Source of the DNA: a virus | Taxonomy: Duplodnaviria > Caudoviricetes | Direction: 5' to 3' (one strand) | DNA: 54,629 nt | IMG/VR virus record: IMGVR_UViG_3300038696_000641 | Coordinates: 1 to 54,629 of that record | Part shown: piece by piece, positions 1,433 to 38,474 of the stretch | Position numbering within the stretch: the first letter of the stretch is position 1 | Layout of the letters: the number at the start of each line of letters is the position of its first letter | Program-made: the position numbers and the translations under genes | Notes under the pieces: model-generated | What the model was told of the DNA's origin: nothing | Database searches by the model: none | The model's input: the letters and a program-made list of their open reading frames with translations, nothing else

Positions 1433-1479
1433 CTACATTATGTTGTGGTAATTGTGAACCAAAACACAACATGTGGTAT
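1433..1479. promoter_or_regulatory. tandem NrdR-box-like pair upstream of lysis cassette
   Basis: CTACATTATGTTGTGG (1433-1448) and ACACAACATGTGGTAT (1464-1479), 31 bp apart. Confidence 0.65.
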
Positions 1480-1624
1480 TTTTGGGATCAAACTACGCTT
1501 GATCGACTTTTCTAAGCAGCGCCTGCGCATCCTTGACGTCCGAAAGATGACTGCGCTCGCAGTGGCGTGGGTTGCGTTGCTATTCGGCCATCCTAGAGTG
1601 CTTTTGTGGCCACGTTGCCCTAAA

Positions 1625-2710
1625 TCACCTTTCACCCCTGATCCTCTTTCGATCTTTGATGAGGGGCGGCGGCACAAACCCGACTCCGCCCAGCACCTTG
1701 CCCCTGAGATTGTAGGTGTCCGCATGGCGCGCGTGCCCGACCCACGACATGATCACCGGGTCGATCTCATCCCAAGTTATCAATCCGCGATGGTACTGCG
1801 CCGCCATGCGCCTCATCTTCCGCTTCATCCTGTTGATGCTGTCTTTTCGAAGCGCCCTGTGCGTCGGCCAAATCCGATAGCCAAGGAAGTCCAAGGCGCG
1901 CCCACCGTCACCTATGGGGAAAACCTGCGTTTTGGAGTTGGTGCGGAGGCCAAGCTCGGCCCAGAGGAAGTCCTCGATCGTGCGGCGGATTTGATGCAGG
2001 TGGAACTTGTCGTGGTGAATGATCACAAAATCATCCATGTATCGCGCATACCGCGTCTCACGCAGCGTGTGTTTAACGAAGTGGTCCAGCTCGTGCAGGT
2101 AGATGTTGGCAAACATCTGGGAAGACAGATTGCCAATTGGGATGCCACGCGGGGTCAGTGCGTCGTGGTCCGCCGAGCTGTCAATTATGCTGTCGATCAG
2201 CCAGAGGGTTTCCTTGCATGCGATCTTTTTCCGGATCATGCGCTTGAGCGCATCGTGACAGATCGAGGGAAAATATTTAGAAATGTCAGCCTTGAGCGCA
2301 TAGACCGCACCATGCTTGCGCTTTACCTCGCGGATGTACCTCTGGACCGTATCGACACCCTTGTGGGCACCCTTGCCTTTCCTGCAGGCGAAGCTCTGGT
2401 CGATGAACTGCGCCTCGAATATCGGCTCAATTACGATCGTTAGCGCGTGCTGAACGACACGATCCTTAAGCGGGAGTGATGCAATCTCGCGGCGCTTTGG
2501 CTCGAATATAAAGAACCGATGATACGGGCCTGTCCGATATGTTTTATGGATCAAGCTCTGGTGTATCTCGATCAGGTTGGGCTCAAGGTTGGCGCGAAAG
2601 GCGATAACGTCACGCTGGCGCGTCCGGCCCTTGGCGGTCTTCGCCCAAGCATCGATCAGCGTCTGCCATTCGATGATCTGGGGCCAAAGCGTGTTGAAGG
2701 TCTTAGCCAT
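1625..2710 (-). CDS. brt: DGR reverse transcriptase
   Basis: Catalytic YMDD; GIPIGNLSSQ (DGR-type xGxxxSQ); DISKYFPSI; DFLGY; 361 aa with no maturase or endonuclease extension; adjacent to TR and avd. Confidence 0.95.
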   Translation of the reverse strand: MAKTFNTLWPQIIEWQTLIDAWAKTAKGRTRQRDVIAFRANLEPNLIEIHQSLIHKTYRTGPYHRFFIFEPKRREIASLPLKDRVVQHALTIVIEPIFEAQFIDQSFACRKGKGAHKGVDTVQRYIREVKRKHGAVYALKADISKYFPSICHDALKRMIRKKIACKETLWLIDSIIDSSADHDALTPRGIPIGNLSSQMFANIYLHELDHFVKHTLRETRYARYMDDFVIIHHDKFHLHQIRRTIEDFLWAELGLRTNSKTQVFPIGDGGRALDFLGYRIWPTHRALRKDSINRMKRKMRRMAAQYHRGLITWDEIDPVIMSWVGHARHADTYNLRGKVLGGVGFVPPPLIKDRKRIRGER

Positions 2711-2872
2711 AATTCCGCACCGGAGTGGCGGCCGGAGTGAGGGGTCGCTGCAAGCAGCTACTGCGACACCCCGGCCTGTTCATGTTTTTCGGCACATGGC
2801 CGAGGATTGCAGGTCCTTTCGAGGGAGCTCTGGACCCGGCCCCATAGGGCTTGGCCTTCTGGCGTTCCCCGG

Positions 2873-2992
2873 AAGCGGGGCGAAAGCCGATGTTCGTGTT
2901 CGCGTTCGACTGGGCATTGTTCAAGTTCAGGGCGAAGACCCCGGCCCTCGAGCCATTGTTCCAGTTGCCACCGCGGATCGGCAGACGCTCAT
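2873..2992 (-). repeat. DGR template repeat (TR)
   Basis: 120 bp colinear with 3419-3538; 17 mismatches, all at TR adenines on the coding strand; rich in AAC/AAT codons. Confidence 0.97.
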
Positions 2993-3339
2993 GCATGGCC
3001 CGCATCCCTTACCAGCGACTTGAACCAGCCGCCGATCATGCGCCCCACCTCATCCATGTGGCGGGACCAAATTTCATACTTCTTCAGGTCAATGTAGCGA
3101 AGGGCGAATGCCGTCCTGACTTGGCTGCGCAGCAGGTCAAGTTCTGCGTCCAGATCCTGCATTGTGGTTTTCTTGTGGTATCGCTTGTTCGTGATGATAA
3201 TCAGTCGAAGCACCCCCCACATCGCGTTGCGGATTTCAGCAGCAAGAACATGCCGCTCGAATTTAGGAAACTGCCGCAGCGCAACGTAGCCGTAGGCGAT
3301 CATCTCCTCGCACTTCTGCCTGATCTTCAAGTCTTCCAC
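2989..3339 (-). CDS. avd: DGR accessory variability determinant (Avd)
   Basis: 116-aa basic helical protein (FPKFERHVLAAEIR...EVGRMIGGW) between target and TR; GTG start; its TGA stop lies in the first bases of TR. Confidence 0.9.
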   Translation of the reverse strand: MEDLKIRQKCEEMIAYGYVALRQFPKFERHVLAAEIRNAMWGVLRLIIITNKRYHKKTTMQDLDAELDLLRSQVRTAFALRYIDLKKYEIWSRHMDEVGRMIGGWFKSLVRDAGHA

Positions 3340-3363
3340 GCGCTGCCTCTTTTGGAGTTGTAG

Positions 3364-3385
3364 GGCCCGCGCTATCGCGCGGACC
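3364..3385 (-). promoter_or_regulatory. DGR target-recognition hairpin downstream of VR/IMH
   Basis: Coding strand CCGCGC-GATA-GCGCGG (3367-3382), extendable by a G.T pair and two G-C pairs; analogous to the GC-stem tetraloop hairpin after the BPP-1 IMH. Confidence 0.75.
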
Positions 3386-3407
3386 TCAGATTACAGGTGG
3401 TCAGATG

Positions 3408-4445
3408 TCAGATTACGAAAGCGGGGCGAAAGCCGAAGAACGAGCGCGCGCTCGACTGGGCATTGAACAAGGACAGGGCGAAGACCCCGGCCCTCGAGCC
3501 ATAGGACCAGCGGCCACCGCGGACCGGCAGACGCTCATCACTTAGGTTGATGTAGAAGCCATCACTCTCAATCGGTGCGCCGGGCTGCATCAGGCCGAGG
3601 GCCTTGAGCCGATGGATCGCCGTCTCCGAGGTCCCGTGCGCAACCATGCTGGAGAGCGACGCGCCCGACCCGCACACCAGCGTTCCGTCCGCCGTGCCCG
3701 AGGTGGCATATTTGACGGCCCCCACGGTGCCGGGATCAACCAATGTGCCATCCGAAGCGAGGATGGCCTGCCACGGCCCTGCCGCACTCAGGTCAGTTGC
3801 AGAAAGAGCCGCGTCGTTATTTGGGATGATCTGGATTTCGCCATCAACGATCCGCATCCCCGGCGACCATTCCCAGACGTTTCCGTTCAAGTTCTGGATG
3901 CCAAAGGGTGTGGCTGGGTGGTTCCATGATACCGGGCCTGAGCCTGCACGAATTGTCGTGTGGCCCGATCCGCCCGAGGATGGGTTGCCGCTATCGTTGA
4001 CCCCAAATTCATCGAATGCGTTGTATGCACGGCCGTTGTTGTTGTTGCCGCGAGGGAAGCGGAAGGCGGCGCGGCATTGAAGGGCGATGGCCGCGTACAT
4101 GGCGTTGGTGGCTACGCAGAAGCCGGGGCCGGTGTTGCGCGCCAGCGTGATCGCCTGATCGTGATTGATGGTTGCGCGAGGCACGAGGCCTGCTTGGCTG
4201 ACCATTTCGCCATTGACCTCGGCGGCTTGGTGCACGCCTATCAGGATTTCATCCTTTTCCACGCCACCAACAATGAAGGCGGGGTGCGCCCCTGTGCCGA
4301 AGCCCGCTCCGAGGCTATCGAGCGTGAACTTGCGCAGGCGGTAAAAATAGCTTGGCTGACCCTTGGCGGTGAAGCGCACAGTCAACTGGCCGTTGGACAT
4401 GGTCTCGATCTGATTGCGCAGGGCGGTTTGTATTGCAATGCTCAT
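3408..4445 (-). CDS. DGR target protein, CLec/FGE-sulfatase-type fold; probable receptor-binding protein
   Basis: NLNGNVWEW and C-terminal RGGxW...GFRPAF motifs; VR at the 3' end; downstream of the tail fibre. Confidence 0.9.
   Translation of the reverse strand: MSIAIQTALRNQIETMSNGQLTVRFTAKGQPSYFYRLRKFTLDSLGAGFGTGAHPAFIVGGVEKDEILIGVHQAAEVNGEMVSQAGLVPRATINHDQAITLARNTGPGFCVATNAMYAAIALQCRAAFRFPRGNNNNGRAYNAFDEFGVNDSGNPSSGGSGHTTIRAGSGPVSWNHPATPFGIQNLNGNVWEWSPGMRIVDGEIQIIPNNDAALSATDLSAAGPWQAILASDGTLVDPGTVGAVKYATSGTADGTLVCGSGASLSSMVAHGTSETAIHRLKALGLMQPGAPIESDGFYINLSDERLPVRGGRWSYGSRAGVFALSLFNAQSSARSFFGFRPAFVI
3419..3538 (-). repeat. DGR variable repeat (VR)
   Basis: Encodes ERLPVRGGRWSYGSRAGVFALSLFNAQSSARSFFGFRPA versus TR ERLPIRGGNWNNGSRAGVFALNLNNAQSNANTNIGFRPA; 11 residues differ. 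Confidence 0.97.
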
Positions 4446-4771
4446 GCTGTGGGCTCCTCTGCATCCGTCGTCGCAGTCTCTGCTGCAATGAAGAAGCTGT
4501 AGATCAGGGCGTAAATATCACCCTGTGTGACGGTCTGGCCAGTAGCCTCTCCGGTCTCTGGATTTAGGACGGGGACGGCTGCGGCCTGATCAAATGCAAG
4601 CTCGCGTGGCGAGATGGGTTGCGCGAACGCCGCCCCATCGGCAAGGCCGATGACCTGCTCACGATGGAAGGCGACGTTAGGGGGGTGCCCTAGGCGGTTG
4701 TCGATCACCACCTGTGAGCATCGGATATAGGCCTCGCCCGCAACGGGCTTCTGGTCGAGCTTGTAGGTCAT
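4442..4771 (-). CDS. hypothetical tail-associated protein
   Basis: 109-aa ORF between tail fibre and DGR target; 4-bp overlap with the target start. Confidence 0.6.
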   Translation of the reverse strand: MTYKLDQKPVAGEAYIRCSQVVIDNRLGHPPNVAFHREQVIGLADGAAFAQPISPRELAFDQAAAVPVLNPETGEATGQTVTQGDIYALIYSFFIAAETATTDAEEPTA

Positions 4772-4775
4772 AGCG

Positions 4776-6191
4776 TCATGCCTCCTTGATTGTGCCGTAA
4801 ACAGTGATCCCGCTGGCGGTAATGCGTAGCCGTTCCGATCCAGCGATGGCCACAGACAGGGTGTCTGCCGCCGATGAATAGATGCCAGCCGACCCGATGC
4901 GCAGGGCGGGGTCGGCCAATGTGCCGCCCTTGAGCGCGATTTGACCGCCGTTGATCTGGTCGGAAAGCTGGCCGATCAGCGAAAGCGCTTCGAGTAGCGT
5001 GCGAAGGGTGTAGACGTCGCCCTCTCGGGCAAGACTGAGGCGCTCGACCTCCCTATAGACCTGCCCTAAAGTGGCAGCTAGTTGGCCGATGTTGTTAATC
5101 GCGCCCCCAAGGGACGATTCGGCTTGAACTGCGCTTGCAAGGGCGGCTGCTTCACTCGACCCCGCATTGCTGGCAGATGTGGCGGAAGCAGTTTCGCTTG
5201 CTGCCGCCGCAGACGCACTGGCTGCCGCCGCCGTTTCCGCCGCTTCCGCCGCAGTCGCGCTCGATGCCGCCTCGGTCGCGCTGGACGCTGCATCAGATGC
5301 GCTTCCGGCTGACTGGCTGGCACTGGCCGCAGATGATGTAGCGGATGTAGCAGCGGACGATTCACTGGCACTGGCCGCCGTTGCCGCCTCTTGGGCCGCT
5401 GTTTTGGAGGCTTCCACGGTCGCTGTGCTGGCCGCTGCGTTGCTGGCGGAGGTTGCCGCTGCCGTTGCATCAGAAGCCGCAGCCGTTGCTGACGTTGCCG
5501 CCGCTGTTTGCGCCGTAGATGCTGCCGACGCCGCTGTCTGCGCGGTCCCTGCGTGTGTCGATGCCGTATCCCGCGCTGCTTGCGCCGCGCTGGCCGCGCC
5601 TTGGGCCAAGCCACGATCTGCCGCCGCCTGTGTGCTTGCCGCCTGAGCTTGTGTGAGCGCTGACGACGCACCGGTTTCACTCTGTGCCGCTGATACCTGA
5701 CTGTCAGATGCCGCGTCACGGCTTGCAAGCGCCGCCGCCGCCGATGCCGCAGCACTGGCCGCAGATGTGCTTGCGCCTGATTGAGACGCCGCCGCAGCGG
5801 TTGCACTTGTCGCAGAGGCCGCCGCCGCCGTGTTCGCCCCGTTGCGGGCCGTCTGGGCGTCGACGACCGCCTGTTGCGCCGCGTCAAGCGATGCAGGTGC
5901 AGGTAGATCGATCAGTTGGGCCAGAAATGCCGTGGAAGCGTCCGGCACTGTAACCGTGAACTTCCCAGATCCTTCGCCAGAGTAAGCCGCAACCTTGTAG
6001 GCGCCGGGGATCAACTCAACAGAGAATGTCCCATCCGCGCCCGTGACAACCTCGAAGGGCTCCGGCAAAACAAGCGTGTTGCTTGATCGCGTCACCAAAT
6101 TGGGCTGTAAATAAAAAGTGAGAGTTGCGCCCGCAGATGGGGTGAGCCCCACATCAGCAACGCTACCAGACACATTGCAAACATCTACCAT
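4776..6191 (-). CDS. tail fibre protein, Ala/Ser-rich shaft (Stf-like)
   Basis: N-terminal VTGADGTFSVELIPGAYKV segment, long AASA-type shaft, C-terminal GTLADPAL...ERLRIT segment. Confidence 0.75.
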   Translation of the reverse strand: MVDVCNVSGSVADVGLTPSAGATLTFYLQPNLVTRSSNTLVLPEPFEVVTGADGTFSVELIPGAYKVAAYSGEGSGKFTVTVPDASTAFLAQLIDLPAPASLDAAQQAVVDAQTARNGANTAAAASATSATAAAASQSGASTSAASAAASAAAALASRDAASDSQVSAAQSETGASSALTQAQAASTQAAADRGLAQGAASAAQAARDTASTHAGTAQTAASAASTAQTAAATSATAAASDATAAATSASNAAASTATVEASKTAAQEAATAASASESSAATSATSSAASASQSAGSASDAASSATEAASSATAAEAAETAAAASASAAAASETASATSASNAGSSEAAALASAVQAESSLGGAINNIGQLAATLGQVYREVERLSLAREGDVYTLRTLLEALSLIGQLSDQINGGQIALKGGTLADPALRIGSAGIYSSAADTLSVAIAGSERLRITASGITVYGTIKEA

Positions 6192-6210
6192 GAGACACGA
6201 CCCCTCAAGA

Positions 6211-6247
6211 AAATAGGCACAACATATTGTGCATGTTGCGCCTATTT
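6211..6247. terminator. long inverted repeat after the giant gene, overlapping an NrdR-like box
   Basis: AAATAGGCACAACAT-7 nt-ATGTTGCGCCTATTT, 14 of 15 positions paired. Confidence 0.5.
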
Positions 6248-6264
6248 AACACATTATGTGGTGT
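6217..6264. promoter_or_regulatory. tandem NrdR-box-like pair upstream of tail fibre/DGR block
   Basis: GCACAACATATTGTGC (6217-6232, near-perfect palindrome) and ACACATTATGTGGTGT (6249-6264), 32 bp apart. Confidence 0.7.
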
Positions 6265-6298
6265 CGTGATAGCCCGCCCGCGCGGGATTGGCCCCCAC

Positions 6299-9200
6299 TT
6301 ATTGCGAGATCATCGGCGCCATATTCCCGCGAATGTAGTCCTCTAGGTTTGTATTGAGCAGCACACCACCCGTCATTCGCTGGCTGGTTCGCAACCGCGC
6401 CCTGTAGGATCGCATGATCGTATCATCATCAATTCTGTAGGTTGGCGGGTACTTGGCATTGAACTCCTGCATCCGGCGCAAGGCGCGCTTGCTGATAGGC
6501 TCGCCTTCGCGCATGTATCGCGTGATATCTGAGAGGATTGCTCTGCGCTCGTCCTGAATGGCAGTTTGCATGTTCATCATGCGCCGGTTGGTCTCGTACC
6601 GCTCACTGACGCGGGCCGGTGAGAAGCCAATGGCCTGCACGACTGCATCATGCGCCGAAACGTCATCGAGCAGCGGATCGCCTTTGTAGGTCGTCACGCC
6701 TTCATTGACATACCGGACAGATCGCATTTGGTCGCGGATCGCTTTGGGCACCATCAATTCTGCGCCACGCCAAACCTCGCCGTCGGCCACCAAACTGACG
6801 CCGCGCAGCATATTCAAGCCGATTGCGGGCACAGCACCGAGAAGCTGGTCAACCATGTAGTAATAGGCGTCCCTGCCCTCCAACTGCCGATTTGGGCTGC
6901 GGAACCAAAGCTCGGGCATACCAATCCGCGCGGTCATATCTGTGCCGGTAAGGGTGCCGGGTACACCTTTGAGGATCATGCCGCCTGCGCCGGTCCCGAA
7001 CAGGCCAACAATCGCGCCTTTAAGCTCTTCTTCGGCCTCGTCGGAACCGCCGTCAAAGAACATACCCGCCAAGAGCATCGTTAGGGCATAGCCCCATGTG
7101 CCGGTGATCCCCGCGTGCAGCATCATCGAGCTTGTGATACCAATCAACTGCGTACGCGCCTGCTTGCGCACCTCTGGGCTTTCCCCCTTAAATGCTTGGT
7201 GCGTATCGCGGAAAAGGCGATAGAGCATGTTCACCTGAAACTGGCGAAAGACGAAGGCCACGCGGGTCCAGTCGTCCTGCATGAAGCGCGGACGGGACCA
7301 GTTTTCATAGTTAAAGTGCGTATCCCACGTCAGATCACCAGCTTTCTTCACGGCGGCTTCCTGATCCATTCCCGAATTTTTCGCCATCCGGTAAGCGGCA
7401 AGGAATGTCACCTCACGGTTCAGGCGCTCGGCATGGTGGAACAGGAAAGAAATTGGCCGCATGACTTTTTCGCGCACGGGTGAGTATTGCACGCCGCCGT
7501 CTTGTATTCCGGCAAGATCGTGCGACTCGCTTTTGTCCAGCGCGCCAGACAAATAGGCTTGCTGCAATGCTGCCCGTTCATCGTCTTTCAATCGGCCACT
7601 TGTCAGCGCGCCTCGGCTCCACTCTGCGTCCCCTTTGGAAAGACCCGCTGTGAAGTCTGCCAGCGCACCAGTCAGTGCCTTTGATGCCTTGGCGACCGTC
7701 GCACCTTTGATGCCGGCAACCAAGATCGGGATGCCGACAACGGTTGTCTGGGTCAGGTTTACCACCGCCGCCGCCGGTGTCAGGCCGAGATACCAGACAA
7801 ACGCGCCAGACGTCGCCCAGGCGCTCCACTGCGCGCCGGTGGGGTTCATCGACCAATCATGGCGTTTTTGCATTTCATTGGCGATTGCACCGGCCCGCGT
7901 TGGGTCAGGCGCGTTCTTCGCCTCACGCCGCGCATTTTCAACGTGCTTTGTCAGGTCCATGGCATGCCGCAAGCGTGTCAACTGGTGCGCGCCGTGGAAC
8001 ATGCGGCTACCAAACGCTTTGATCGCGTCCCTGTCGAAGCCGGGTACGCCCTTGCGGTGGATATTGGCCTTGCGGACCGAGAATGAAGGCAGGGTTTCCA
8101 GATACCTCTGGTAGATTGCATCGAGGATCTGGCCGTCCATAGCGACTTCGCCCAGTGCCTCTGCAATATCGGCCACAAAGTTGGGATCAACGAACCGGCT
8201 GACGTCATCTTCGGGCTTCATCACGCCCTTTTCGACCACAAGCCCCTGATCCTGCATCTCCGACGCAATGCGCTGCTGTGCGCCCGCCGTGGATGCCCGC
8301 TCAAAGTGAACCAGCTTGCCCTTGGCGTCCCGCGCCGCGACAAAGAATTGCCCAAAGCGCATCAGCGGGAAGTAGGGCCCGTCGATCCGGTTGCTTTCAT
8401 AGGTCAGGCGCATCTTGCGAATACGCGCGTTCCGGCTGAACTCAAGCATCTTGATATCTTGGTTGTACCGCGACCGCGCCTTCTTGCGCGCCTGCGTTGC
8501 CTCAGCGCCCGTCAGGCCGTCTTCAATGATCTGCTGCAACTCGCCTTCATACCGCGCCTTGAGGCGTGAGGATTGCAATTCCATGGCCTTGGCCACCGCA
8601 TCAACCATCGCGTTGATCAGATCTTCATCGAAAGCCCGATAGCTATCGCGCGCCTTGCGGTAGATATCCTGCATGGCCTCTGGCAACGCATTGAACTTCT
8701 GCTGCATAGACGCATGGCTGCTGCGCTTTTCTTCCACGAAATTCATATATTTGCCGGTGGTCATGTCGGCGGGCCGCTTGGGCCGCTTAAACTTCTCCGA
8801 TGGGTCCATTCCCTCAATCGTGGATTCGTGCATCAGATCGTGCAGCTTTCTGCCGTTCTCTTTGTCCTTGGCGTAGTGACCCTGCCACTCCCGCGCCAAC
8901 ACATCGGCCTCAGCGTGCATTTCCTGCCGCTCCGCCGTCATTTGCCGCATGCTCTGAACCCACTTGGCCGCAGACGGCAGGGCCTTGCCCAGATCACGGA
9001 ACAGCACTTCGCCCGGCACAAGCGCAAGCGAGTTGTTCTTATCGCTGGAAGCCATGGCGTTGGTAAGAAGGTTGCTGACGAAACTGGCCTCTTTCTTGTC
9101 CAATGCCGCATCGGTCTTTGCAGCCTTGGGCGACCACATCTTTGAGATAGACGCCATCAAGGCTGGGTTGTCTGCCGGATCAGCGTTGACCGTATCGAAC

Positions 9201-23165: not shown

Positions 23166-23169
23166 GCGT

Positions 23170-23604: not shown

Positions 23605-23616
23605 GTCTGTGCTTCC

Positions 23617-24669: not shown

Positions 24670-24673
24670 CGTA

Positions 24674-25096: not shown

Positions 25097-25098
25097 GA

Positions 25099-26348: not shown

Positions 26349-26363
26349 GTTCTTCTTCCTCGT

Positions 26364-28432: not shown

Positions 28433-28440
28433 GGCCTACC

Positions 28441-29103: not shown

Positions 29104-29109
29104 GTCTGC

Positions 29110-29793: not shown

Positions 29794-29796
29794 GGG

Positions 29797-30240: not shown

Positions 30241-30311
30241 TCCAGTGTTCCTCTGTGAAATGGGTGAAGGGGCGAGACGTACTGCCTCACCCCTAGTTTG
30301 TGTTTCGTCGC

Positions 30312-30752
30312 TTACGCGATGAAGTCGATCTTGACGGTCAGCTTTTTGGCGGCACCGGCTGAGACGTTTGCCGCGATGGTCGCACCAATGGCGCGGTGCG
30401 CTTGGTACGGTGCAACGGCAAGGCAGTCAGCCAGATCGGCATTGGCTTCGTTGTTGTTGACCGAGATGGCGTCAAACAGCTCGTCACCAACGGTGCGCTC
30501 GCTTGTTGCGTCGGACGGCTCGCCGGTCATGATGCCAATGTCAGCGGTGGTAGCGCCAAGGCCTGCACCAATAACGGTGGCACCAACAACCTGCGTACCG
30601 GCAGGCAGCAAGCCCAGCTCGATGACGTCTGTTGCGGCGGTGTAATCGGCATCGAATGTGTATTCGAACACCGCGCTTGTCACGATACCGGCTTGGTAAG
30701 CGGTTGGTGTCGCTTTCCGGCCAGTCGCGTTTTGCGTTTGGAAGGTAGTCAT
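30312..30752 (-). CDS. putative capsid cement/decoration protein
   Basis: 146-aa, likely beta-rich ORF directly after the major capsid (DVIELGLLPAG). Confidence 0.55.
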   Translation of the reverse strand: MTTFQTQNATGRKATPTAYQAGIVTSAVFEYTFDADYTAATDVIELGLLPAGTQVVGATVIGAGLGATTADIGIMTGEPSDATSERTVGDELFDAISVNNNEANADLADCLAVAPYQAHRAIGATIAANVSAGAAKKLTVKIDFIA

Positions 30753-30770
30753 GGTCGTGTCCCTCTCTCA

Positions 30771-30823
30771 TGAATAGGGGTTTTGGGAGTAGCTGGGCCG
30801 CCTCACGCGGCCCTGCCTATTCA
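30771..30823. terminator. nested inverted repeats between capsid and cement genes
   Basis: Inner GGGCCGC-CTCAC-GCGGCCC (30795-30813); outer TGAATAGG...CCTATTCA. Confidence 0.45.
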
Positions 30824-30830
30824 GTCGGGG

Positions 30831-31922
30831 TTAGACTGGCAGTGCGTATGTATCCAACGCCATCACGCCGAAGTCGCGGTTGTTGAAGCGTGTCTTTTTG
30901 ACACCCATGATGACACCTGCAACAACGGTTGGCTCGTTGTCGTAGTCTTCCATCTCTTCTTTCCACATGTAGCGCATGCCGCCCGGCGTACCGAACGCAA
31001 CCACACCGGCCTGACGGCCAAGGAAGAGCGCGCGTGCTGCGGGCAGGTTTGCACCCGAACCGTAGTCGTTGAAGCGGATCACATGCTCATGCTCGTGCAG
31101 CACGACATTGTTGATCATGCCCATTGTGCCTTTGAAGATAGGCGACTTGCGGCCCTCTGCGGCTGCGGCGGCCTTTTGGAAGTCCAGCCACTTGGAACCG
31201 GCACCGGTACGCATGGTGTGCGCTTGGTACGGCGACATCACGGTGACGAAGTGCTTTTCACCTTCAACGTCGACCGGCATCATGTCGGTGGCGTCTGGGT
31301 CATTGGCACGCATCATCTTAGCGCGTGTGGCGGTCTTTTCGATCAGGTCTGTCGACATGACGTCGGCAGTCGTGACGTTGGCCTTGGCTGTTGCTGTGCC
31401 ACCAAAGATCAGGTGTGCAGCATCAGGTGCTTGCAGCGCGTTGGAAGCAAAGCCCGAGTAATCGGCGGTTTCGATAAACTCTTCGTTGATGCCGCGCGCA
31501 CCGGACAGGTAGATGAAATACATCTCGTCGATGTACTGCGTCCAGTATTCGGCAAGGCGATCCTTGGCGATCTTGCGCATGTCATGCAGCGTGCGCTTGC
31601 GGCTCATGCGGCCACCGGCAGATACAGGGTGACGCATCTGGTCGATCACAACTTCATCAGAGAAGAAGCGCAGGTTTTCTTCCTTGCCCTTCACGCGGGA
31701 ATCGCCAAACGTCGGGCGCTGGCGAAGCTTTACGGACAGGTCGAAGGAAATCCGGTCGCCAGCATCGCTGGCAAGGTCCATCTTTTCTTCGATGATGTTG
31801 TTTTCGCCTTTGCCAACAAACTTCTTGTTGAAGTAGCTGTTGCGGTTGACTTGCGTGGCGAGAGTTGCGCCCCAGCGCTTAACAGCGCGCGGATCACCCC
31901 AGTTCAGGATGGTTTGTGTCAT
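30831..31922 (-). CDS. major capsid protein, N4-gp56/DUF4043-like
   Basis: AGDRISFDLS..L, IDQMRH, RALFLGRQA and GVKKTRFN motifs; start taken at MTQT behind a GAGGA RBS. Confidence 0.88.
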   Translation of the reverse strand: MTQTILNWGDPRAVKRWGATLATQVNRNSYFNKKFVGKGENNIIEEKMDLASDAGDRISFDLSVKLRQRPTFGDSRVKGKEENLRFFSDEVVIDQMRHPVSAGGRMSRKRTLHDMRKIAKDRLAEYWTQYIDEMYFIYLSGARGINEEFIETADYSGFASNALQAPDAAHLIFGGTATAKANVTTADVMSTDLIEKTATRAKMMRANDPDATDMMPVDVEGEKHFVTVMSPYQAHTMRTGAGSKWLDFQKAAAAAEGRKSPIFKGTMGMINNVVLHEHEHVIRFNDYGSGANLPAARALFLGRQAGVVAFGTPGGMRYMWKEEMEDYDNEPTVVAGVIMGVKKTRFNNRDFGVMALDTYALPV

Positions 31923-31990
31923 GGTAGTCCTCATCGACTAAAGAAAACGAGGCGGACTTCCATGCCCTAAGTATCCGGCATCCTGCCGTT
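31923..31990 (-). promoter_or_regulatory. capsid 5' leader with four GGA motifs (candidate CsrA sites)
   Basis: Hairpin CGGC-AGGAT-GCCG (31976-31988), GGA (31974-31976), ATGGA (31959-31963), GAGGA RBS (31928-31932). Confidence 0.55.
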
Positions 31991-32001
31991 AATGCTTATA
32001 T

Positions 32002-32047
32002 ATACCATATCTTGTGTTGGTTTGCCAATATGATCTATATGTTGTGG
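32002..32047. promoter_or_regulatory. tandem NrdR-box-like pair upstream of major capsid
   Basis: ATACCATATCTTGTGT (32002-32017) and GATCTATATGTTGTGG (32032-32047), 30 bp apart. Confidence 0.7.
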
Positions 32048-32048
32048 T

Positions 32049-32213
32049 TTATTTGTCGGGCGCTGCGCTTGGCAGGCGCTCGATGTTCAGGTTGCGCGGC
32101 GCATCGATCGCAATCTTTATGGCGCGACTGTTGCTTGGTTCATCACGAACGATCAGCTTTATGCTGTCGCCAATCATCAAGCTATCGCCTGCTTTCAATT
32201 TGAGTGTCAGCAC
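32049..32213 (-). CDS. csrA: CsrA/RsmA-like protein (54 aa, absent from the ORF track)
   Basis: Manual translation MLTLKLKAGDSLMIGDSIKLIVRDEPSNSRAIKIAIDAPRNLNIERLPSAAPDK; fits the CsrA pattern ML.L....G..LMIGD...I.I.AP....I.R; GTG start with AAGGA RBS. Confidence 0.8.
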   Translation of the reverse strand: MLTLKLKAGDSLMIGDSIKLIVRDEPSNSRAIKIAIDAPRNLNIERLPSAAPDK

Positions 32214-32228
32214 CGCGCAGTATCCTTT

Positions 32229-33236
32229 TTAAACGTCCATGGAAGCGAAGGCTTCGGCTTCTTCTGGTGGCATCTGATCTATGATCCGCTCGTATTCGAA
32301 CGCATCAGCGCTTTTGAGACGCTGGGCCAGTGCCGAGTATTTGCCATCGGACACCGAGGTTTGCTGCGCGGCTGGCACGTTTGCCAATGTGCGCGGCGCT
32401 TTGTCCCCTGCCCGCTTTTTGGGTGCGGGCTTGGGTGCTGGCTTCAGGTCTGCCTTGGCCTCTGCTTTGGGTGCTGTTGCCTTGCTCTTGAGGGCTGGCA
32501 CCTCGATGCCATCGTCCAGTGCATCGGCGGCATAGAGGCGATGGGCCTTTTCCAGCATTTGCTGGTGCGTCTTGTTGGCCATGCGCGGATCTGCGGTCAC
32601 TTCCTCCACAAAGAGGTTGAAGTTGTCCTTGTGCGTTGCGTCTGCAAGCTCTGGATAGGCTTTGAAGTATTCTCCGGCAGTGTTCATGAACGCGGACAGG
32701 ACTTGATCGTTCTGGCGTTCCAGCACGGCTTTTTCGGCAATCAGGTCTTTGCTTTGGTTATCGACCTCTTTGACCTTCGCCATGTATTCCTCACGGGTCA
32801 GGTTGCCTTCTTCCCAGTCATCGAATGCGGCTTCTTTTGCCTTTTCGAGCGTGTCCATTTCAGTATCGAACACCGAAAGGTCCATGATCTGCGTGGATGA
32901 TGCAGGCGCGGCTTTGTCCTGGTCATCTTCGGCTATATCACCGGCACCTTCTTGGGCTTCTTCGGCTCCCTGTGCTTCTTGGGATTGAACTTCACCGGCT
33001 TCATCGGCATCTGGATCATCCCCTTCACCGTTTTCGTCTTCACCGAGCAGGGCTGCGCGCTCTTCATCGCTGAGAAGGCGCATGTCTTCTTCGGTAAATC
33101 CGTCATCGTCATCGGCTCCGTCTTCTGCATTCAGATCAAGCGTGTCCTCGCTTTCGGTTTCTTCACCGTCAGTCTGGTCTTCTGCTTTCACCTGATCGTC
33201 AGTTGTCAGGTCGTCCTTGGTGTCTTCTTCGGCCAT
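32229..33236 (-). CDS. putative scaffolding protein
   Basis: Highly acidic, coiled-coil-like 335-aa protein between portal and capsid. Confidence 0.65.
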   Translation of the reverse strand: MAEEDTKDDLTTDDQVKAEDQTDGEETESEDTLDLNAEDGADDDDGFTEEDMRLLSDEERAALLGEDENGEGDDPDADEAGEVQSQEAQGAEEAQEGAGDIAEDDQDKAAPASSTQIMDLSVFDTEMDTLEKAKEAAFDDWEEGNLTREEYMAKVKEVDNQSKDLIAEKAVLERQNDQVLSAFMNTAGEYFKAYPELADATHKDNFNLFVEEVTADPRMANKTHQQMLEKAHRLYAADALDDGIEVPALKSKATAPKAEAKADLKPAPKPAPKKRAGDKAPRTLANVPAAQQTSVSDGKYSALAQRLKSADAFEYERIIDQMPPEEAEAFASMDV

Positions 33237-33245
33237 GGTGTCCTC

Positions 33246-33440
33246 CTATGGCGTGGGTTGGTGTTTTTGGGTGAACTGGTCGACTGCTTGCGCATGCACC
33301 CATCCGTCGCGCCAGTTGGCGTGATCGCCCGGCCAGTCGTCGGCGTGGAAAGGCGCTGTGCGCTCATGGGGATTGGCAGACGCATCGAGATTGTCCCGAT
33401 ACGCCTGCTGTCCTGCGTGGAATGGCGTCAGGTTATCCAA
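33246..33440 (-). CDS. hypothetical protein
   Basis: 64-aa ORF overlapping the portal stop (NPH...W.DGW). Confidence 0.5.
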   Translation of the reverse strand: MDNLTPFHAGQQAYRDNLDASANPHERTAPFHADDWPGDHANWRDGWVHAQAVDQFTQKHQPTP

Positions 33441-35769
33441 TCGGCATGCCTTCCTGTGGCATTGGCTGCTGTGGTTGGTCCTGTGCCTGCATGGCCTGCT
33501 GTTCCGCTATAGCCTGCTCTTGTGCGGCTATGGCTTGCTCCTCGATCGCCTGCTGTTCTGCGGCTGCGGCTTGTGCGGCTTCGTCCTGCGGTGACAGATA
33601 CCCTGAGCGATTCAGCACGTTGTCCACGACTGGGATCGCGGGCTTGGCGTTGATAATGCTGAGAGCCAGCTCCAAAGCGTCCTTTTGCGTCTTGATGTTG
33701 TCTTGCGGCATGCCTTTGAGAAGCTTTTGCGCCTCGGCCATGGTCTTTTCGGCGCGTGCCTGCTTTTCGGCGGCCTCGCCTTCGACCTTTGCCAGATTTG
33801 CCATGGCTGCACGCTGTTCCATCTCGCCTTGCGCCTGCTTGGCCTGTTCGCGGGCCTCGCGCTCTGGGTCTGGCGTATCGGGATCGGCGTCGGGGTCTTC
33901 CATGCCGGTCATCTGGCGAATGCGGTTTACGACTTCCTCGCCTGCGGGCAGGTCCATCATTTCAACAATGAGGTCGAGCAACACCATGACGATCTGCGGT
34001 GCGACTGGGCCGACCTGCGTGAGAAGCTGCATAAACTGGTCGACGGCTGCTTGGCGCAGGCTGGCGCTCCATGCGTCCTCTGAAATGATGTAGTCTGCCT
34101 TGCTGCGCACAATGTCGTTTTCTGGCAGGCCGTCGTTGACAGTCACGTAGTCAGGCGAACCGCGGCGGTTTGTGATCCGGAAGGTCTTTTCCTCGGTCAT
34201 AAACTGTTCAATGAGGCTGAGGGTCTTTTCGCCGTGTATCTGGCGGGCCAGACGCAAGTTGTCGAACATCTTGGCTGTGGACATGGCACCTTGGCTCTGG
34301 CGCGCCTCGATGGCCTTGCCGCTGGTGGCGTTGGTGGTGCGCCCCATGGCTTCGTCTGTGATGCCTGACAGGGTTTGCACCATCGACATGGACAGGTTCA
34401 TGATATCAAGATGCGCCGATGCTAGTTCGCGGTCGCTGTTGATTTCCAGATGCTTGCCCGGGTTCTTTACGATGATCGCGTCAGCGCGGCCGATTTCTTC
34501 CTCAAACTCGTCCAGATCATCCACGGCGCCCTTGTCCATGATCACCTTGTTGGAGTTGATGATGGATAGAGCCTTGGACAATCGCTTGTTGAGGTCTTTC
34601 TGGGCGCTGATCATGCCGCGAATGATGCCGTATGGCGTGCCGTCTGATGACTTCCGGTATCCCCATAGCGGCGTGAACGGGTATCTGTTGTGGCGGTATG
34701 GGCTGGGTGACAGCCAAAGCACGCCCTTAAGGGTCATGATCATCACGTACATGCGCTGCGTCAGGCGCTTTCGGACTTCGCCAAAGCCGGATGCAACCGA
34801 GGCTTGGTGGCCGATGCTTTCAGGATCAAAGATTTCGCCTGCAAACTCGCCGCCTGCCATGCGGTCTTCCATGACGGGTATCTTGAACCATGCCTCTATC
34901 AACCGCACGCGGTCGCGTGAGAACGATGGGTTATCGATGGTGTGGTATTGCCCGCCAGCAAGGTCGCCAAGCTCTTCAATGCTATCCATGGGATCATCGC
35001 CGTGACGATCACCGAATGCGCCCCACTCAAGGTGGCTTGATGTGCTGGCCTCAACGATGCCTGACCGCTCGGGGAACATGGCGCAGGCAGTATCGACGTC
35101 TACCCACTTTGTGCGAAAGATGAACCGCGCGTCTGACAGGTCCAGTTCCTTGGCTGATGTATCGTAGATGACATTGCGCCAGCTTTCATACCGCTCATAG
35201 ATCGGCTCGCCTTCGCTATCGTCCTGCAATCCGCTTTCAATCCAGCCCAGTCCGACCTTTGCCTGTTCTTCAAACGACCGGCTGATATGAAACTCGGTGC
35301 GGTTGACGTCGGACAGGTACTTGAGAAGCTGGCTCTTGCGTTCGGCACTCTGGCGGGAATCCTTGCTGCGTGGCAGGATTTTGTAATCAACGCGGGTCCG
35401 GCGCTCGGTTCCAAGCACCCAGTTGATGCTTTGCGCGATGACGTTGTAGGTCAACGGCTCTTGCCCGCGCGCTTGCAGGACCGCCATGTCCTCTTGTGAC
35501 CACTGCTCATGGTCGTAGTAGGCTTCATCCTGCTCCATGAGGCGGCGTGACTGGCCCTGTGCGTCCAGCTCGCGCAGATAGTGGCTGATCATGCGCTGGT
35601 GCAGCTCTGTGGCGCGCACGCTGTCCATATCGGACTTCACGGCCTTTTCGACGTCACCCATCAACAACAGGTTTGCCGATGGCACCTTGAAACGGTCTTC
35701 GGGGCGCTGGTTTGGCTTGGTATAGCTGTCAATCTGGCTTGGGATTGCGTCGTTGTATTGATCAGGCAT
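33433..35769 (-). CDS. portal protein (P22-like)
   Basis: YYDHEQWS..RGQEPLTYN, PYGIIRGM..QKDLNKR and long C-terminal helix; follows terL; start 35769 or 35808. Confidence 0.88.
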   Translation of the reverse strand: MPDQYNDAIPSQIDSYTKPNQRPEDRFKVPSANLLLMGDVEKAVKSDMDSVRATELHQRMISHYLRELDAQGQSRRLMEQDEAYYDHEQWSQEDMAVLQARGQEPLTYNVIAQSINWVLGTERRTRVDYKILPRSKDSRQSAERKSQLLKYLSDVNRTEFHISRSFEEQAKVGLGWIESGLQDDSEGEPIYERYESWRNVIYDTSAKELDLSDARFIFRTKWVDVDTACAMFPERSGIVEASTSSHLEWGAFGDRHGDDPMDSIEELGDLAGGQYHTIDNPSFSRDRVRLIEAWFKIPVMEDRMAGGEFAGEIFDPESIGHQASVASGFGEVRKRLTQRMYVMIMTLKGVLWLSPSPYRHNRYPFTPLWGYRKSSDGTPYGIIRGMISAQKDLNKRLSKALSIINSNKVIMDKGAVDDLDEFEEEIGRADAIIVKNPGKHLEINSDRELASAHLDIMNLSMSMVQTLSGITDEAMGRTTNATSGKAIEARQSQGAMSTAKMFDNLRLARQIHGEKTLSLIEQFMTEEKTFRITNRRGSPDYVTVNDGLPENDIVRSKADYIISEDAWSASLRQAAVDQFMQLLTQVGPVAPQIVMVLLDLIVEMMDLPAGEEVVNRIRQMTGMEDPDADPDTPDPEREAREQAKQAQGEMEQRAAMANLAKVEGEAAEKQARAEKTMAEAQKLLKGMPQDNIKTQKDALELALSIINAKPAIPVVDNVLNRSGYLSPQDEAAQAAAAEQQAIEEQAIAAQEQAIAEQQAMQAQDQPQQPMPQEGMPIG

Positions 35770-36238
35770 GGTCTTTGACCTCACGGTGGACTTCTTGTCC
35801 GGTGTCATTGTTGGTGATGATCAGGTCGGCTGCGACTTCCATGCCTTCGCGTGGCATTGGCGGCAGGGCCAGCAATTCGCCCATCAGGTCGCGCACGATG
35901 CTGACGATCTTGATCACGTTCTTGATGTTGTTGGGGTTGAACCCGAGATTGGCGCAGAAGATCGCGGCTGTGATGGCAACGTCACCTTCGTCGCCTGTCT
36001 CTTCGGCCCACCGCCAAGCGTCGTCTTGCAGGATCACGCAAGGCGTGATGCGCTCATGGTTGATCCGGTCCACACGCGGGGTCAGCACCATGCAACGCTG
36101 GCCGGTGAGAAAGTTCCACGTCAGCCAGATCAACACGTCGCCACGCGAATAGACGGCATGGTTCTTGGTCAGGTCGTATGGGGCTCTGTATTCGCTGCCA
36201 CCCGCGTTTGAATGGCCGATTGATTGGTGCTGTGTCAT
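35762..36238 (-). CDS. hypothetical protein between terL and portal
   Basis: ORF coupled to both neighbours; start taken at MTQHQ. Confidence 0.6.
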   Translation of the reverse strand: MTQHQSIGHSNAGGSEYRAPYDLTKNHAVYSRGDVLIWLTWNFLTGQRCMVLTPRVDRINHERITPCVILQDDAWRWAEETGDEGDVAITAAIFCANLGFNPNNIKNVIKIVSIVRDLMGELLALPPMPREGMEVAADLIITNNDTGQEVHREVKDHA

Positions 36239-37839
36239 ACCCACATGCCTCCCTTTGGTCTGTTTCTGCGGCGCGGACGTGTCGGGCCTGAGATGATGGT
36301 TGGGTCGTAGCCTTGGGCCCACTGGCGGAATGCGTCAGCGGCCTCTGAATGGCCTGTCAGTTTCTCTGGCTCGTTTGTGAAAACGCCGAGTGTCGAGTTC
36401 CATTTTTTGCGGTAAAGGCGCAGGTGTTCGAGCCCATCTTTGCAGCCTTCGGCGTCGAACCATGCTTCATTGAATTTTGCGCGCGTCTGGTTGATGCCGT
36501 GCAGAAGCTCGTGGACCCGCGGAACAACATTGAAATGCCAGTCGGGTGCGAGCTGCCGCAGGTCATCGATAGGGGCCCGGACACCATCCATGGTCTGACG
36601 TTTGTTTTCGGCATCGTGCGGCAGGTAATGCGCGCCGAAGAGAAAGCCTGTCTCGCGCAGTTCCTTGATGAAATGAGCGTAACCGAGCGACCAACCCTCG
36701 ATGTACCGCAAGAACCGGTGCTGTGCGCCGACATGCTGCATGATCCAGACGCCAGTGCCATCCGATGCGCCGATGTCCCAAAAGGTATGACAAAGAATGC
36801 CTTCGATGTGGGGTATTGTCGTGATGCGGCGCTCTTTTCGCAGCATGACGAACTGTCTGGCAAAGAACGTGCCTTCGGTGGACTTCTGCCAGCACTCTTT
36901 GCTGGTCGACGGCATTTCCCGCCACATCTGCTCTTGATCGCCCGCGAAGTCGTTCTCGCGGCGCAGGACATACCATGCGCGCTGTCGTAGGCTGATCTTT
37001 GCGCCCGTTTCCGCCTCGACCTCGGCAAAGTATTCGTGATCAGCGTCCGTGAATGTCACGCCTTCAGGATTGGACTCGTATTCGCCTGCCTTCCACCAGG
37101 GGAAGAAGTGGAAGGCCCACTCTTCCCCCTTGAGCTTTTCACCTGAATCGAACAATTCCTCGGCGCGGGTTGTCATTTCATAGAAGGCACCCTCGCTGCC
37201 CTCTGCGGTGCTTTCGATCACTGCGACGCCTTTACTGGGGACAGATGGCAGTGAGCCTGTGACGATCTCTGCGGCTTTCTGGGGTTGCTTGGCGGCAACC
37301 TTGCCCATCTCGGACACGTGCAGCCTGTGAAACGTGCCGGATCGCGCTGATACGGTCACTTCGATCGCGCTGTTGTTATGCTCGAACACCAGCTCTTCGG
37401 CTGACTGGCGCAATAGGCCCATAGCGCCATCTCGCGCCCATTCCGGCATCCGGTTGTAGGCAAACAAAACCTTGTCACGCAGGATGCGCTCTGCGGCGTT
37501 CTTGGTGTGGGCGATGATGCAGCAACGCTGGTCTGCATTGAATAGCGCATGATCGAGCCAAAGGATCGCTATGAGCGTTGTGAACCCGAGCTGTCGAGCT
37601 TTAAGGATGATGTTGCGATAGTGCAGCTTCTTGAGGAAAGCGCGTTGTGACTGGTTGGGGATGAATGGCATGACGTATGCTGTGCTGTCGTCGTCGCCTT
37701 CGTCCTCTTTGGCCATGATGCAGTAGAGCTGGCCTGAGAAAATTCGCCACTCCCAGCAATTAAGGCACGCAACGATTTCATCATGCGTCTTGGGAATGAA
37801 TGACGGATCAATCTTTGGAGGCGAAGCGAGCGCGTTCAT
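36235..37839 (-). CDS. terL: terminase large subunit
   Basis: Walker A KARQLGFTT, Walker B LHVSE, ESTAEG, nuclease WDIG..D and SEAADAFR. Confidence 0.92.
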   Translation of the reverse strand: MNALASPPKIDPSFIPKTHDEIVACLNCWEWRIFSGQLYCIMAKEDEGDDDSTAYVMPFIPNQSQRAFLKKLHYRNIILKARQLGFTTLIAILWLDHALFNADQRCCIIAHTKNAAERILRDKVLFAYNRMPEWARDGAMGLLRQSAEELVFEHNNSAIEVTVSARSGTFHRLHVSEMGKVAAKQPQKAAEIVTGSLPSVPSKGVAVIESTAEGSEGAFYEMTTRAEELFDSGEKLKGEEWAFHFFPWWKAGEYESNPEGVTFTDADHEYFAEVEAETGAKISLRQRAWYVLRRENDFAGDQEQMWREMPSTSKECWQKSTEGTFFARQFVMLRKERRITTIPHIEGILCHTFWDIGASDGTGVWIMQHVGAQHRFLRYIEGWSLGYAHFIKELRETGFLFGAHYLPHDAENKRQTMDGVRAPIDDLRQLAPDWHFNVVPRVHELLHGINQTRAKFNEAWFDAEGCKDGLEHLRLYRKKWNSTLGVFTNEPEKLTGHSEAADAFRQWAQGYDPTIISGPTRPRRRNRPKGGMWV

Positions 37840-38414
37840 CAGTCGTCGTCTTCCGCCGTCGCAATCGGGGCTGCGCTGCCGCGCTTGGATATCTCCTGAA
37901 TTGCGAGAGCAAGGCGATCAACGACTTCGTTCTTAGACGTGTCGCTCATGCCAAGATATGTGCCCAGCTTCTCAAGTGCCTTGAGCCGGTCCATTGGCTT
38001 GACCTTGACGGTAATGATTTCCTTGTCGGGCTGATTTTGGTCGCCTTTCCCTTTGCCGGGTTCGCGTCGGATGACTGCTGTTGTGTCTTCAAGCAGGTCC
38101 AGTTCTTCCTCGGTGCAGTCGGACAGGTCGATTACAGGAAGACCTTCATCATCCACGCGGATGAATTTGCTCATGCCTGTGAAGGCGATTCGCTCATACT
38201 CCGCAATGACGTCATCGAGTGTCTTAGCCGCTCGCTTCGCCCCTTCTTCGGAAAGCTGCTTAACGCGGGCTATGACCTTTTCATTTCCTTTCAGGCGGGA
38301 TGCGTTGCCATCGTTCTTCTTAAAGCCTGCTTCAACGTATGCGGCGCTGGCAGATAAGCCCAAAGCCATGCCCTGTGCGAACTTTTCATGCTTTGGATTG
38401 GATAGAACGCCCAT
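37839..38414 (-). CDS. terS: terminase small subunit
   Basis: NPKHEKFAQ..AY..AG..NASRL and DRLKALEKLG..LGM motifs; directly upstream of terL. Confidence 0.88.
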   Translation of the reverse strand: MGVLSNPKHEKFAQGMALGLSASAAYVEAGFKKNDGNASRLKGNEKVIARVKQLSEEGAKRAAKTLDDVIAEYERIAFTGMSKFIRVDDEGLPVIDLSDCTEEELDLLEDTTAVIRREPGKGKGDQNQPDKEIITVKVKPMDRLKALEKLGTYLGMSDTSKNEVVDRLALAIQEISKRGSAAPIATAEDDD

Positions 38415-38417
38415 TTT

Positions 38418-38474
38418 ATACCATATCTTGTGTCTGATGCCCGCTTATGGGGTCACATATACAACATATAGTAT
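38418..38474. promoter_or_regulatory. tandem NrdR-box-like pair immediately upstream of terS
   Basis: ATACCATATCTTGTGT (38418-38433, identical to the capsid box) and ATACAACATATAGTAT (38459-38474), 41 bp apart. Confidence 0.7.

Follow-up and report, generated by a model that had tools for sequence, protein, structure and literature searches.

Introduction

The repressor NrdR is considered specific to ribonucleotide reductase (RNR) genes. Here, pairs of NrdR-type boxes are described in the late region of a tailed phage, on a stretch of 54,629 nucleotides (IMG/VR record IMGVR_UViG_3300038696_000641; Duplodnaviria, Caudoviricetes). This whole stretch is called the window below. In the published mechanism, an NrdR tetramer binds two boxes only when it is loaded with ATP plus dATP. 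Sjoberg and colleagues report that binding requires both boxes and that the box positions C4, A6, A8, T9, T11, and G13 are highly conserved (PMC13584703). For NrdR from four species, tight binding is reported at spacers of 14-17/18 bp, with a second optimum at 24-27 bp, and these optima correspond to three or four helical turns between the box centres (PMC12051234).

The closest described systems are the operators of RNR operons (nrdAB, nrdHIEF, nrdDG, and nrdJ). Like these, the sites in the window are 16-bp partial palindromes with C4, A6, A8, T9, T11, and G13, and two boxes stand 14-17 bp apart or one helical turn more, on what is predicted here to be the promoter. The putative targets are unlike those of the RNR operators. 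They are packaging, head, tail, diversity-generating retroelement (DGR), and lysis genes, with six pairs in 37 kb. In nrdJ of Rhodobacteraceae, one strong box is combined with one degenerate box, whereas both boxes are good in the phage pairs.

According to bioRxiv 2025.03.28.645925, E. coli and P. aeruginosa have pairs of NrdR boxes at their RNR operons and nowhere else. The same preprint describes NrdR-like boxes outside RNR operons, at Shewanella dnaA and at the topA gene of Pseudomonas; those are single and their function is doubted by the authors, whereas the phage boxes form full pairs with canonical spacing. The phage in the window combines phage DNA with the NrdR system, as do some earlier cases, but has neither nrd genes nor nrdR. 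A survey of phage RNR genes from 2013 reportedly found NrdR boxes upstream of phage nrd genes, and phage open reading frames (ORFs) are annotated as NrdR in two papers. In line with the initial annotation of the window, which knew of no description of NrdR as a phage late-gene regulator, literature searches found no published description of NrdR boxes on phage structural or lysis genes, though an earlier mention may exist.

Six Box Pairs in the Late Region

The initial annotation listed ten related 16-bp boxes in five intergenic pairs, one at each late gene block. Direct reading of the window found all ten 16-mers, with spacings of 31, 32, 31, 30, and 41 bp (Table 1). The capsid and terS proximal boxes do share one sequence, and TGGTATA is indeed present on the coding (minus) strand in three boxes, the proximal boxes of terS, the capsid gene, and the giant gene. 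All five pairs are present, but a sixth pair, 24744/24775, was overlooked. It is located within the 3' end of the GNAT gene 24674-25186, and its partner box 24775 surfaced from a scan for pairs of the six-base core. Since the late genes are all on the minus strand, the box with the lower coordinate in each pair is promoter-proximal.

The sites agree with the published rules for NrdR boxes. All six critical bases are present in 10 of the 12 boxes, and the other two, 1433 and 6249, keep five, with T for A at position 6. The spacers of the pairs measure 15, 16, 15, 15, 14, and 25 bp, and every pair falls inside one of the two published spacer classes.

A symmetrised matrix was built from the ten boxes first listed (phage matrix; consensus ACACAATATATTGTGT). 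On the window, these ten boxes score 11.5-23.0 and, apart from 24744 (Table 1), all other sites score 10.9 or less. The scan with a degenerate NrdR consensus allowed up to three mismatches and gave 12 matches, against 2.54 +/- 1.46 in 100 shuffles, none of which reached 12. The matches are eight of the ten boxes first listed (not 1433 and 32032), 24744, and the unpaired sites 12107, 16988, and 45237. The six-base core alone is not enriched (14 sites in the window against 11.0 +/- 3.3 by chance), so that a core match alone means little. Four full-core pairs stand at centre-to-centre distances of 30-33 or 40-43 bp, whereas 500 shuffles gave 0.012 on average and never more than one.

A repeat search of the window found no long repeat over the box pairs. 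They are thus not copies of one duplicated cassette, and such a cassette was ruled out as their source.

Profile searches found no ATP-cone, no NrdR (TIGR00244; nothing at E values up to 10), and neither a class I/II nor a class III RNR (PF02867, PF13597) in the window, confirming what the initial annotation had stated of nrdR and RNR. Because the phage does not encode NrdR, the boxes would most likely be bound by the host NrdR tetramer. The genes behind the pairs are terS, the capsid gene, and genes for virion proteins, the tail fibre and DGR, and lysis. Since the downstream genes are not RNR genes, the sites are classed as NrdR-type operators in a new context, and not as part of an RNR regulon.

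Table 1. Candidate NrdR-type boxes and the putative transcription units behind them. Spacings are centre-to-centre; core, the six critical bases.
Feature	Coordinates	Strand	Sequence	Host matrix score	Remarks
terS proximal box	38418..38433		ATACCATATCTTGTGT	16.0	6/6 core; 3 nt before start codon 38414
terS distal box	38459..38474		ATACAACATATAGTAT	14.6	41 bp spacing (25-bp spacer); just 3' of terminator
Capsid proximal box	32002..32017		ATACCATATCTTGTGT	16.0	same sequence as terS proximal box
Capsid distal box	32032..32047		GATCTATATGTTGTGG	8.7	30 bp spacing (14-bp spacer); 6/6 core
New proximal box	24744..24759		GCACCACATTTTGTGG	17.2	phage matrix 16.0; ~75 nt upstream of 23617-24669
New distal box	24775..24790		ACCCAATATGTAGGCA		31 bp from 24744; 6/6 core, degenerate outside core
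Giant-gene proximal box	21098..21113		ATACCACATTTAGTCT	9.4	51 nt upstream of 4915-aa ORF start (21046)
Giant-gene distal box	21129..21144		ACACCACATCTTGTGT	20.4	highest host matrix score; 31 bp spacing
Tail-fibre/DGR proximal box	6217..6232		GCACAACATATTGTGC	11.9	25 nt upstream of 4776-6191 start
Tail-fibre/DGR distal box	6249..6264		ACACATTATGTGGTGT	10.2	32 bp spacing; 5/6 core
Lysis proximal box	1433..1448		CTACATTATGTTGTGG	9.9	5/6 core; 47 nt upstream of 1110-1385
Lysis distal box	1464..1479		ACACAACATGTGGTAT	17.3	31 bp spacing
Late region	484..38414	-			six putative transcription units, one box pair heading each
Putative unit 1	start codon of terS at 38414	-			terS, terL, P22-type portal, 335-aa acidic protein, 54-aa CsrA
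Putative unit 2	through 24674-25186	-			major capsid protein, virion proteins, through GNAT gene
Putative unit 3	23617-24669 to 21147	-			three virion genes, the first (23617-24669) a virion structural protein with Peptidase_S74 domain
Putative unit 4	6299-21046	-			single 4915-aa ORF
Putative unit 5	tail fibre 4776-6191	-			tail fibre and DGR (target, Avd, reverse transcriptase)
Putative unit 6 (lysis)	1110-1385, then 484-1167	-			weak holin-like matches (1110-1385); endolysin/peptidase (484-1167)

Comparison with nrdJ Operators of Rhodobacteraceae

The nearest terL relatives in isolate genomes are both from Rhodobacterales, Roseinatronobacter (62%) and Frigidibacter (45%). The window is best read as a temperate phage of the P22-portal type with a Rhodobacterales host. 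NrdR is encoded above the curated cut-off in all four Rhodobacterales genomes with the nearest terL relatives.

The starts of nrdJ were sought in 61 Rhodobacteraceae genomes; 59 matched, and the best 30 were taken as loci. Locus L138 was dropped as it has too little upstream sequence, leaving 29 regions of 450 nt. De novo palindromic expectation-maximization was run on these nrdJ upstream regions, and 11 of 12 refined seeds converge on CCACTACATGTAGTGG. When the window is scored with this host matrix, the ten boxes first listed and 24744 occupy ranks 1-11, with scores of 20.4-8.7, and the next site scores 5.4. The initial annotation had proposed scoring with an alphaproteobacterial matrix, and this is the outcome. 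Its statement that early regions have no boxes also holds, since host-matrix scores never exceed 3.4 within 38.6-54.6 kb. In 1.34 Mb of unrelated loci, there are 20 sites of at least 8.7, or ~0.8 per window length.

The reciprocal test gave a consistent picture. In each of the four host-lineage genomes checked, the phage matrix picks out boxes with a 31-bp spacing upstream of RNR genes. Agreement between the host and phage matrices is near-perfect at positions 3, 4, 6, 8, 9, 11, 13, and 14 and still good at 2 and 15. LexA, CtrA, DnaA-box, Fur-type, and P2 Ogr (TGT-N12-ACA) sites were weighed and dropped, since the nrdJ motif matches directly.

In Rhodobacteraceae, nrdJ has one near-perfect palindromic box ~145-250 nt upstream of the start codon (loci L136-L165). 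Most nrdJ regions also have a conserved degenerate partner, cTACGtCAgtTTGTGg, 31 bp further upstream of the strong box. A strict tandem pattern with two strong boxes was defined as CAC.A.AT.T.GTG, 17 free bases, and the same again, with 20 fixed bases. It matched one of 301 host genomes, and the reversed control also matched one, which shows only that such pairs are rare in the chromosomes scanned.

Conservation in Related Phages

Five IMG/VR fragments whose terL is 73-81% identical to that of the window have box pairs before terS and before the capsid gene. The terS pair of the relatives is always 41 bp apart (4/4 related loci covering the site), and the capsid pair is 30-31 bp apart. In the alignments, the box arms are conserved, the terS linker diverges, and the capsid linker keeps an invariant TTGGCAA (four aligned phages). 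The relative G065 has a third pair at the position equivalent to 24744/24775. Another relative, G067, has a box identical to 24744, plus a further pair elsewhere. The five closest viral fragments stop short of the giant gene, and the conservation, proposed as a check in the initial annotation, covers the pairs before terS, the capsid gene, and the 23617 homologue. With the phage matrix, 21 sites of at least 13 were observed in 118 loci (1.43 Mb), 14 of them in the five close relatives. Relatives on contigs of isolate genomes are at most 62% identical in terL. Among them, a weak pair was seen only in the Roseinatronobacter prophage L001, where a fair box and, 32 bp from it, a half-site stand between a terminator and terS.

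The independent host matrix, the critical bases, the spacer rule, and the conservation all agree with the NrdR-box-like identity given in the initial annotation. On these comparisons of sequence, it is highly probable that the sites are NrdR-type operator pairs.

Promoter Geometry and Proposed Mechanism

The proximal box is 3 nt from the listed start codon of terS, 25 nt from that of the tail fibre, and 47-74 nt from those of the other units. The arrangement at the capsid gene is the clearest. On the minus strand, the 3' end of the capsid proximal box leads into an element that resembles an extended -10, TGGTATATA, and the linker has the -35-like TTGGCAA. TTGGCA is 17-18 bp upstream of GTATAT/TATATA, which is itself preceded by TGG (TGGTATATA). 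The capsid promoter would thus have its extended -10 on the 3' edge of the proximal box and its -35 in the linker. In nrd promoters, NrdR boxes are described as overlapping the RNA polymerase site, like the capsid arrangement here. The capsid gene probably starts 12 nt downstream of the listed start, behind a conserved GAGGA.

At terS, the relatives L041 and L046 have 9 nt between the proximal box and the ATG that the window lacks. In the relatives, the terS box leads into a perfect extended -10 (TGGTATAAT) that is 9 nt ahead of the ATG. The terS mRNA would be leaderless or nearly so in both the window and the relatives.

In the proposed mechanism, host NrdR, loaded with ATP plus dATP, would occupy both boxes of each pair. 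The proximal box would be at or beside the -10 and the -35 would be in the linker; because of this position, bound NrdR would block RNA polymerase. The packaging, head, tail, DGR, and lysis genes would be held off while NrdR is bound. Phage replication would lower dATP, or the 12 boxes on each genome copy would exceed the NrdR supply, and the repressor would leave. Late genes would then fire simultaneously with the host RNR genes. We infer the binding of NrdR, the repression, its trigger, and the overlap with promoters, except for the -35-like TTGGCAA of the capsid linker, which is present in the sequence. This whole scheme, in which host NrdR represses six late units and replication-driven loss of dATP or titration relieves them, is judged slightly better supported than not. 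As for the interpretation in the initial annotation, the NrdR-type operator pairs were substantiated by computation, while a dATP or copy-number timer or an NrdR sponge is still conjecture.

The proposed logic has parallels in known phages. Late transcription of T4 depends on the sliding clamp, gp33, and gp55, that is, on its own sigma-like factor and the clamp on replicating DNA. The likeness is that late genes would be on only once the genome replicates. Unlike in T4, the sensing is proposed to be done by a host repressor, either through dATP/ATP or through its titration, and there is no kinship in sequence or protein. LexA boxes in temperate phages gate induction or early genes upon DNA damage. 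There too, the operator of a conserved host repressor is on phage promoters and a host signal gates development, as is proposed here; unlike in those prophages, the operators in the window are confined to late promoters, and the nucleotide pool would serve as the signal. In S. pneumoniae infected with the lytic phage SpSL1, the host NrdR regulon is reported to be strongly induced (PMC6755750), so that release of NrdR during phage growth occurs in at least one system. As a speculation, the design with two strong boxes may keep phage operators occupied when the host nrd operators are already free.

A 54-aa CsrA homologue (PF02599, E 2.6e-10, above cut-off) is encoded at 32049-32213 on the minus strand, and its gene stops 1 nt short of the distal capsid box. 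The relatives G065, G066, and G067 have CsrA as well. The ~80-nt capsid leader (31922-32001), which is conserved in the relatives, has a hairpin CGGCAGGATGCCG at 31976-31988, CATGGAAG, and GATGAGGAC over the ribosome-binding site. These elements carry GGA, a motif typical of CsrA sites. This suggests that the phage CsrA controls capsid translation.

Strict Tandem Pattern in IMG/VR

By a rough estimate, well below one match to the strict tandem pattern is expected by chance in the IMG/VR collection. The pattern matches 97 IMG/VR stretches, 80 of which were taken as loci, from 78 records. A class I/II RNR large-subunit gene is present in 7 of the 78 records. Among the 17 records that are at least 90% complete, none has a class I/II RNR, three have NrdD, and 14 have neither.

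On each side of a pair cluster, the flanking ORF was defined as the longest one of 90 aa or more with its start at -40 to +350 nt, a crude rule that includes spurious frames. The Pfam families among the 97 flanking ORFs are portal (5), ATP-cone (5), MazG (4), Terminase_6C (4), AntA (3), ANT (2), NRDD (2), and DUF3102 (2), with single cases including a prohead protease and a tail chaperone. Twenty flanking ORFs were checked singly. They are three portals, three large terminases, one prohead protease, one glycosyltransferase, two DUF3102 proteins, and ten ORFs without a family. The gaps between portal gene and pair are 6 and 44 nt (the start of the third is unclear), and those of the large terminases are 13, 149, and 200 nt. 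Pairs ahead of packaging genes in such unrelated phages were not noted in the initial annotation. The G+C content of these phages ranges over 0.40-0.69, and the family of their portals is not that of the P22 type. Most matching phages have one or two pairs; among those examined, the window with six is the fullest case.

In some viral contigs, four or five NrdR-type boxes form an array in phase, with spacings of 31, 41, 31, and 40 bp or of 31, 32, and 32 bp. They are found in L184 (10700-10858), L194 (7612-7770), L203/L211/L241, L205, and L234. In L203, L211, and L241, the array is 149 nt upstream of a large terminase gene. Two sets of phages (L188, L218, L228, L237, and L240; L181, L227, and L249) have ~0.38-0.40 G+C, and some of them are proviruses. 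Near-complete members of the two sets are 41-45 kb long. Each set has the same strict pair, with an ORF of 90-96 aa on one side and a DUF3102 or unassigned gene on the other. Elsewhere, pairs are flanked by antirepressor (AntA/ANT) and MazG genes. Because pairs also flank DUF3102, antirepressor, and MazG genes, late genes are not the sole phage targets.

It is tentatively proposed, with doubt somewhat outweighing confidence, that host NrdR is a widespread developmental timer that is independent of the phage, with many unrelated RNR-less phages putting pairs on packaging, late, or antirepressor promoters. A fall of dATP from the phage's own replication, or titration of NrdR, may then switch on the next stage. 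The prophage in the window, whose late region is covered throughout by six pairs, would be the fullest instance. In that case, the NrdR regulon would reach beyond RNR genes to viral development, and deoxynucleoside triphosphate sensing would be a general input to the timing of phage genes. Such pairs would also offer a simple answer to how late transcription is coupled to genome replication in the many temperate phages without a recognisable late activator. The scan suggests a phenomenon beyond this phage, and late promoters could be predicted from NrdR pairs. Antibacterial targeting of NrdR might affect such prophages.

Alternative Explanations

Several points weigh against control of the late genes by host NrdR. 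Columns 1, 5, 7, 10, 12, and 16 of the host and phage matrices correlate poorly. Host nrdJ prefers CCAC...GTGG, and the phage boxes are mostly ACAC or ATAC...GTGT or GTAT. Five phage boxes score 8.7-11.9 against a host median of 23.1, and all eleven scored boxes are below this median. Boxes 1433 and 6249 are without A6. The NrdR of this phage's host and the host boxes are taken from relatives. No pairs were found in the more distant relatives (terL 56% or less), so the conservation is that of one close clade, and L001 carries a weak pair only. Relatives of the giant protein in IMG/VR, 46-49% identical over an internal stretch of its N-terminal part, have no pairs. Consensus scans for sigma-70-type promoters and for terminators found nothing at any of the six pairs, and gave fewer promoter-like matches than shuffles. 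The -35/-10 assignments at the five promoters other than that of the capsid gene are weak. NrdR repression of nrd genes is modest. To place lysis genes in a lysogen under a metabolite-sensing host repressor alone looks risky, and another control layer may therefore exist. Finally, a motif common to all late promoters would also fit the site of a phage late regulator, and six early ORFs (38598-40827) are without assigned function.

In one alternative explanation, which the initial annotation also allowed for, a phage late regulator, or another host factor, binds NrdR-look-alike boxes as a late-promoter element. A single motif at every late promoter is the classic signature of such a regulator, and the difference in outer box positions between phage and host nrdJ is in line with it. 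The six ORFs lie between the replication module and terS. They include a 170-aa CxxC...CxxC zinc-ribbon ORF (38837-39349) and a 78-aa ORF (40439-40675) that is conserved in both relatives covering the region. Pfam and PHROGs searches of the ORFs at 38598-40827 gave nothing except a sub-threshold zinc-ribbon match, and protein look-ups of the 170-aa and 78-aa ORFs gave sub-threshold neighbours only. The zinc-ribbon ORF is poorly conserved, with 39% identity over 54 aa in one relative and no counterpart found in the other. No phage protein resembles NrdR at E values up to 10, and none of the early ORFs could be identified as a late activator, sigma factor, or antiterminator; the initial annotation likewise saw no obvious late activator. 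A regulator unrelated to NrdR would need all six contact bases and both spacer classes, and a box in contact with the start codon or the -10 region does not suit an activator. The same pairs occur in unrelated phages whose morphogenesis modules differ, which a universal host protein explains more easily. A phage late regulator or another host factor is therefore considered rather unlikely.

Another explanation keeps NrdR as the binder but makes the boxes decoys, whose main purpose would be to soak up NrdR, with 12 strong boxes on every replicating genome, and derepress the host RNR for phage DNA synthesis. Their location ahead of late genes would then be secondary. The phage is without RNR and therefore depends on the host enzyme. 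The combination of two good boxes in each phage pair, in place of the strong and degenerate boxes of nrdJ, and the near-absence of such pairs from host chromosomes (one genome, as in the reversed control) also fit a decoy. However, a decoy need not head every late unit, touch start codons, or keep a -35-like element in a linker, and the one or two pairs in most other strict-pattern phages would do little for titration. As the main purpose, a decoy is improbable. A decoy role is compatible with repression of late genes by host NrdR, and may be additional to it.

It is very improbable that the boxes are AT-rich promoter sequence (-10-like TATNNT, extended TGn), NrdR-like by composition and bound by no protein: the AT-rich box centre does overlap -10-like hexamers in several proximal boxes and the core alone is not enriched, but the same palindrome, C4 and G13 arms included, is present in the distal boxes 30-41 bp upstream, pairs at allowed spacings far exceed the number in shuffles, and the palindromic arms are kept in relatives while the linkers drift.

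Other Features of the Phage Genome

The IMG/VR record is a 54.6-kb provirus without host flanks. A megablast search against GenBank phages found no near-identical phage record. The sole sequencing run with this stretch is a DNA metagenome from a salt lake, which is maybe the source sample. All genes at 484-47544 are on the minus strand, and a gene for an HTH_3 repressor-like protein at 47820 is divergent. In the order of transcription, the early region encodes GIY-YIG, a small helix-turn-helix protein, a GapR homologue, HNH, a single-stranded DNA-binding protein, RusA, an O-like replication initiator with iterons, a DNA methyltransferase, and the six family-less ORFs. A strong terminator (~38500-38535) is located between the early region and terS.

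The GapR-like DNA-binding protein (46291-46581, minus strand; PF10073, E 1.4e-29) is 77-82% conserved in two relatives. Within the gene for the O-like initiator, an 11-nt unit (TGTCCCGCTGC) occurs in three exact tandem copies, with a further copy that has diverged (43562-43603 and 43695-43714). These units are probably the iterons of the origin.

The DGR is complete, with reverse transcriptase (1625-2710), Avd (2989-3339), and target (3408-4445), all on the minus strand and in the same putative unit as the tail fibre. Its template/variable repeat pair is 123 nt long (2870-2992 and 3416-3538) and 85% identical. The 4915-aa ORF is located between the virion genes and the tail fibre, and contains a 27-nt repeat in three exact copies (19879-19964). 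A tail-fibre-like gene at 25467-26348 has an exact 42-nt tandem duplication at 25639-25722.

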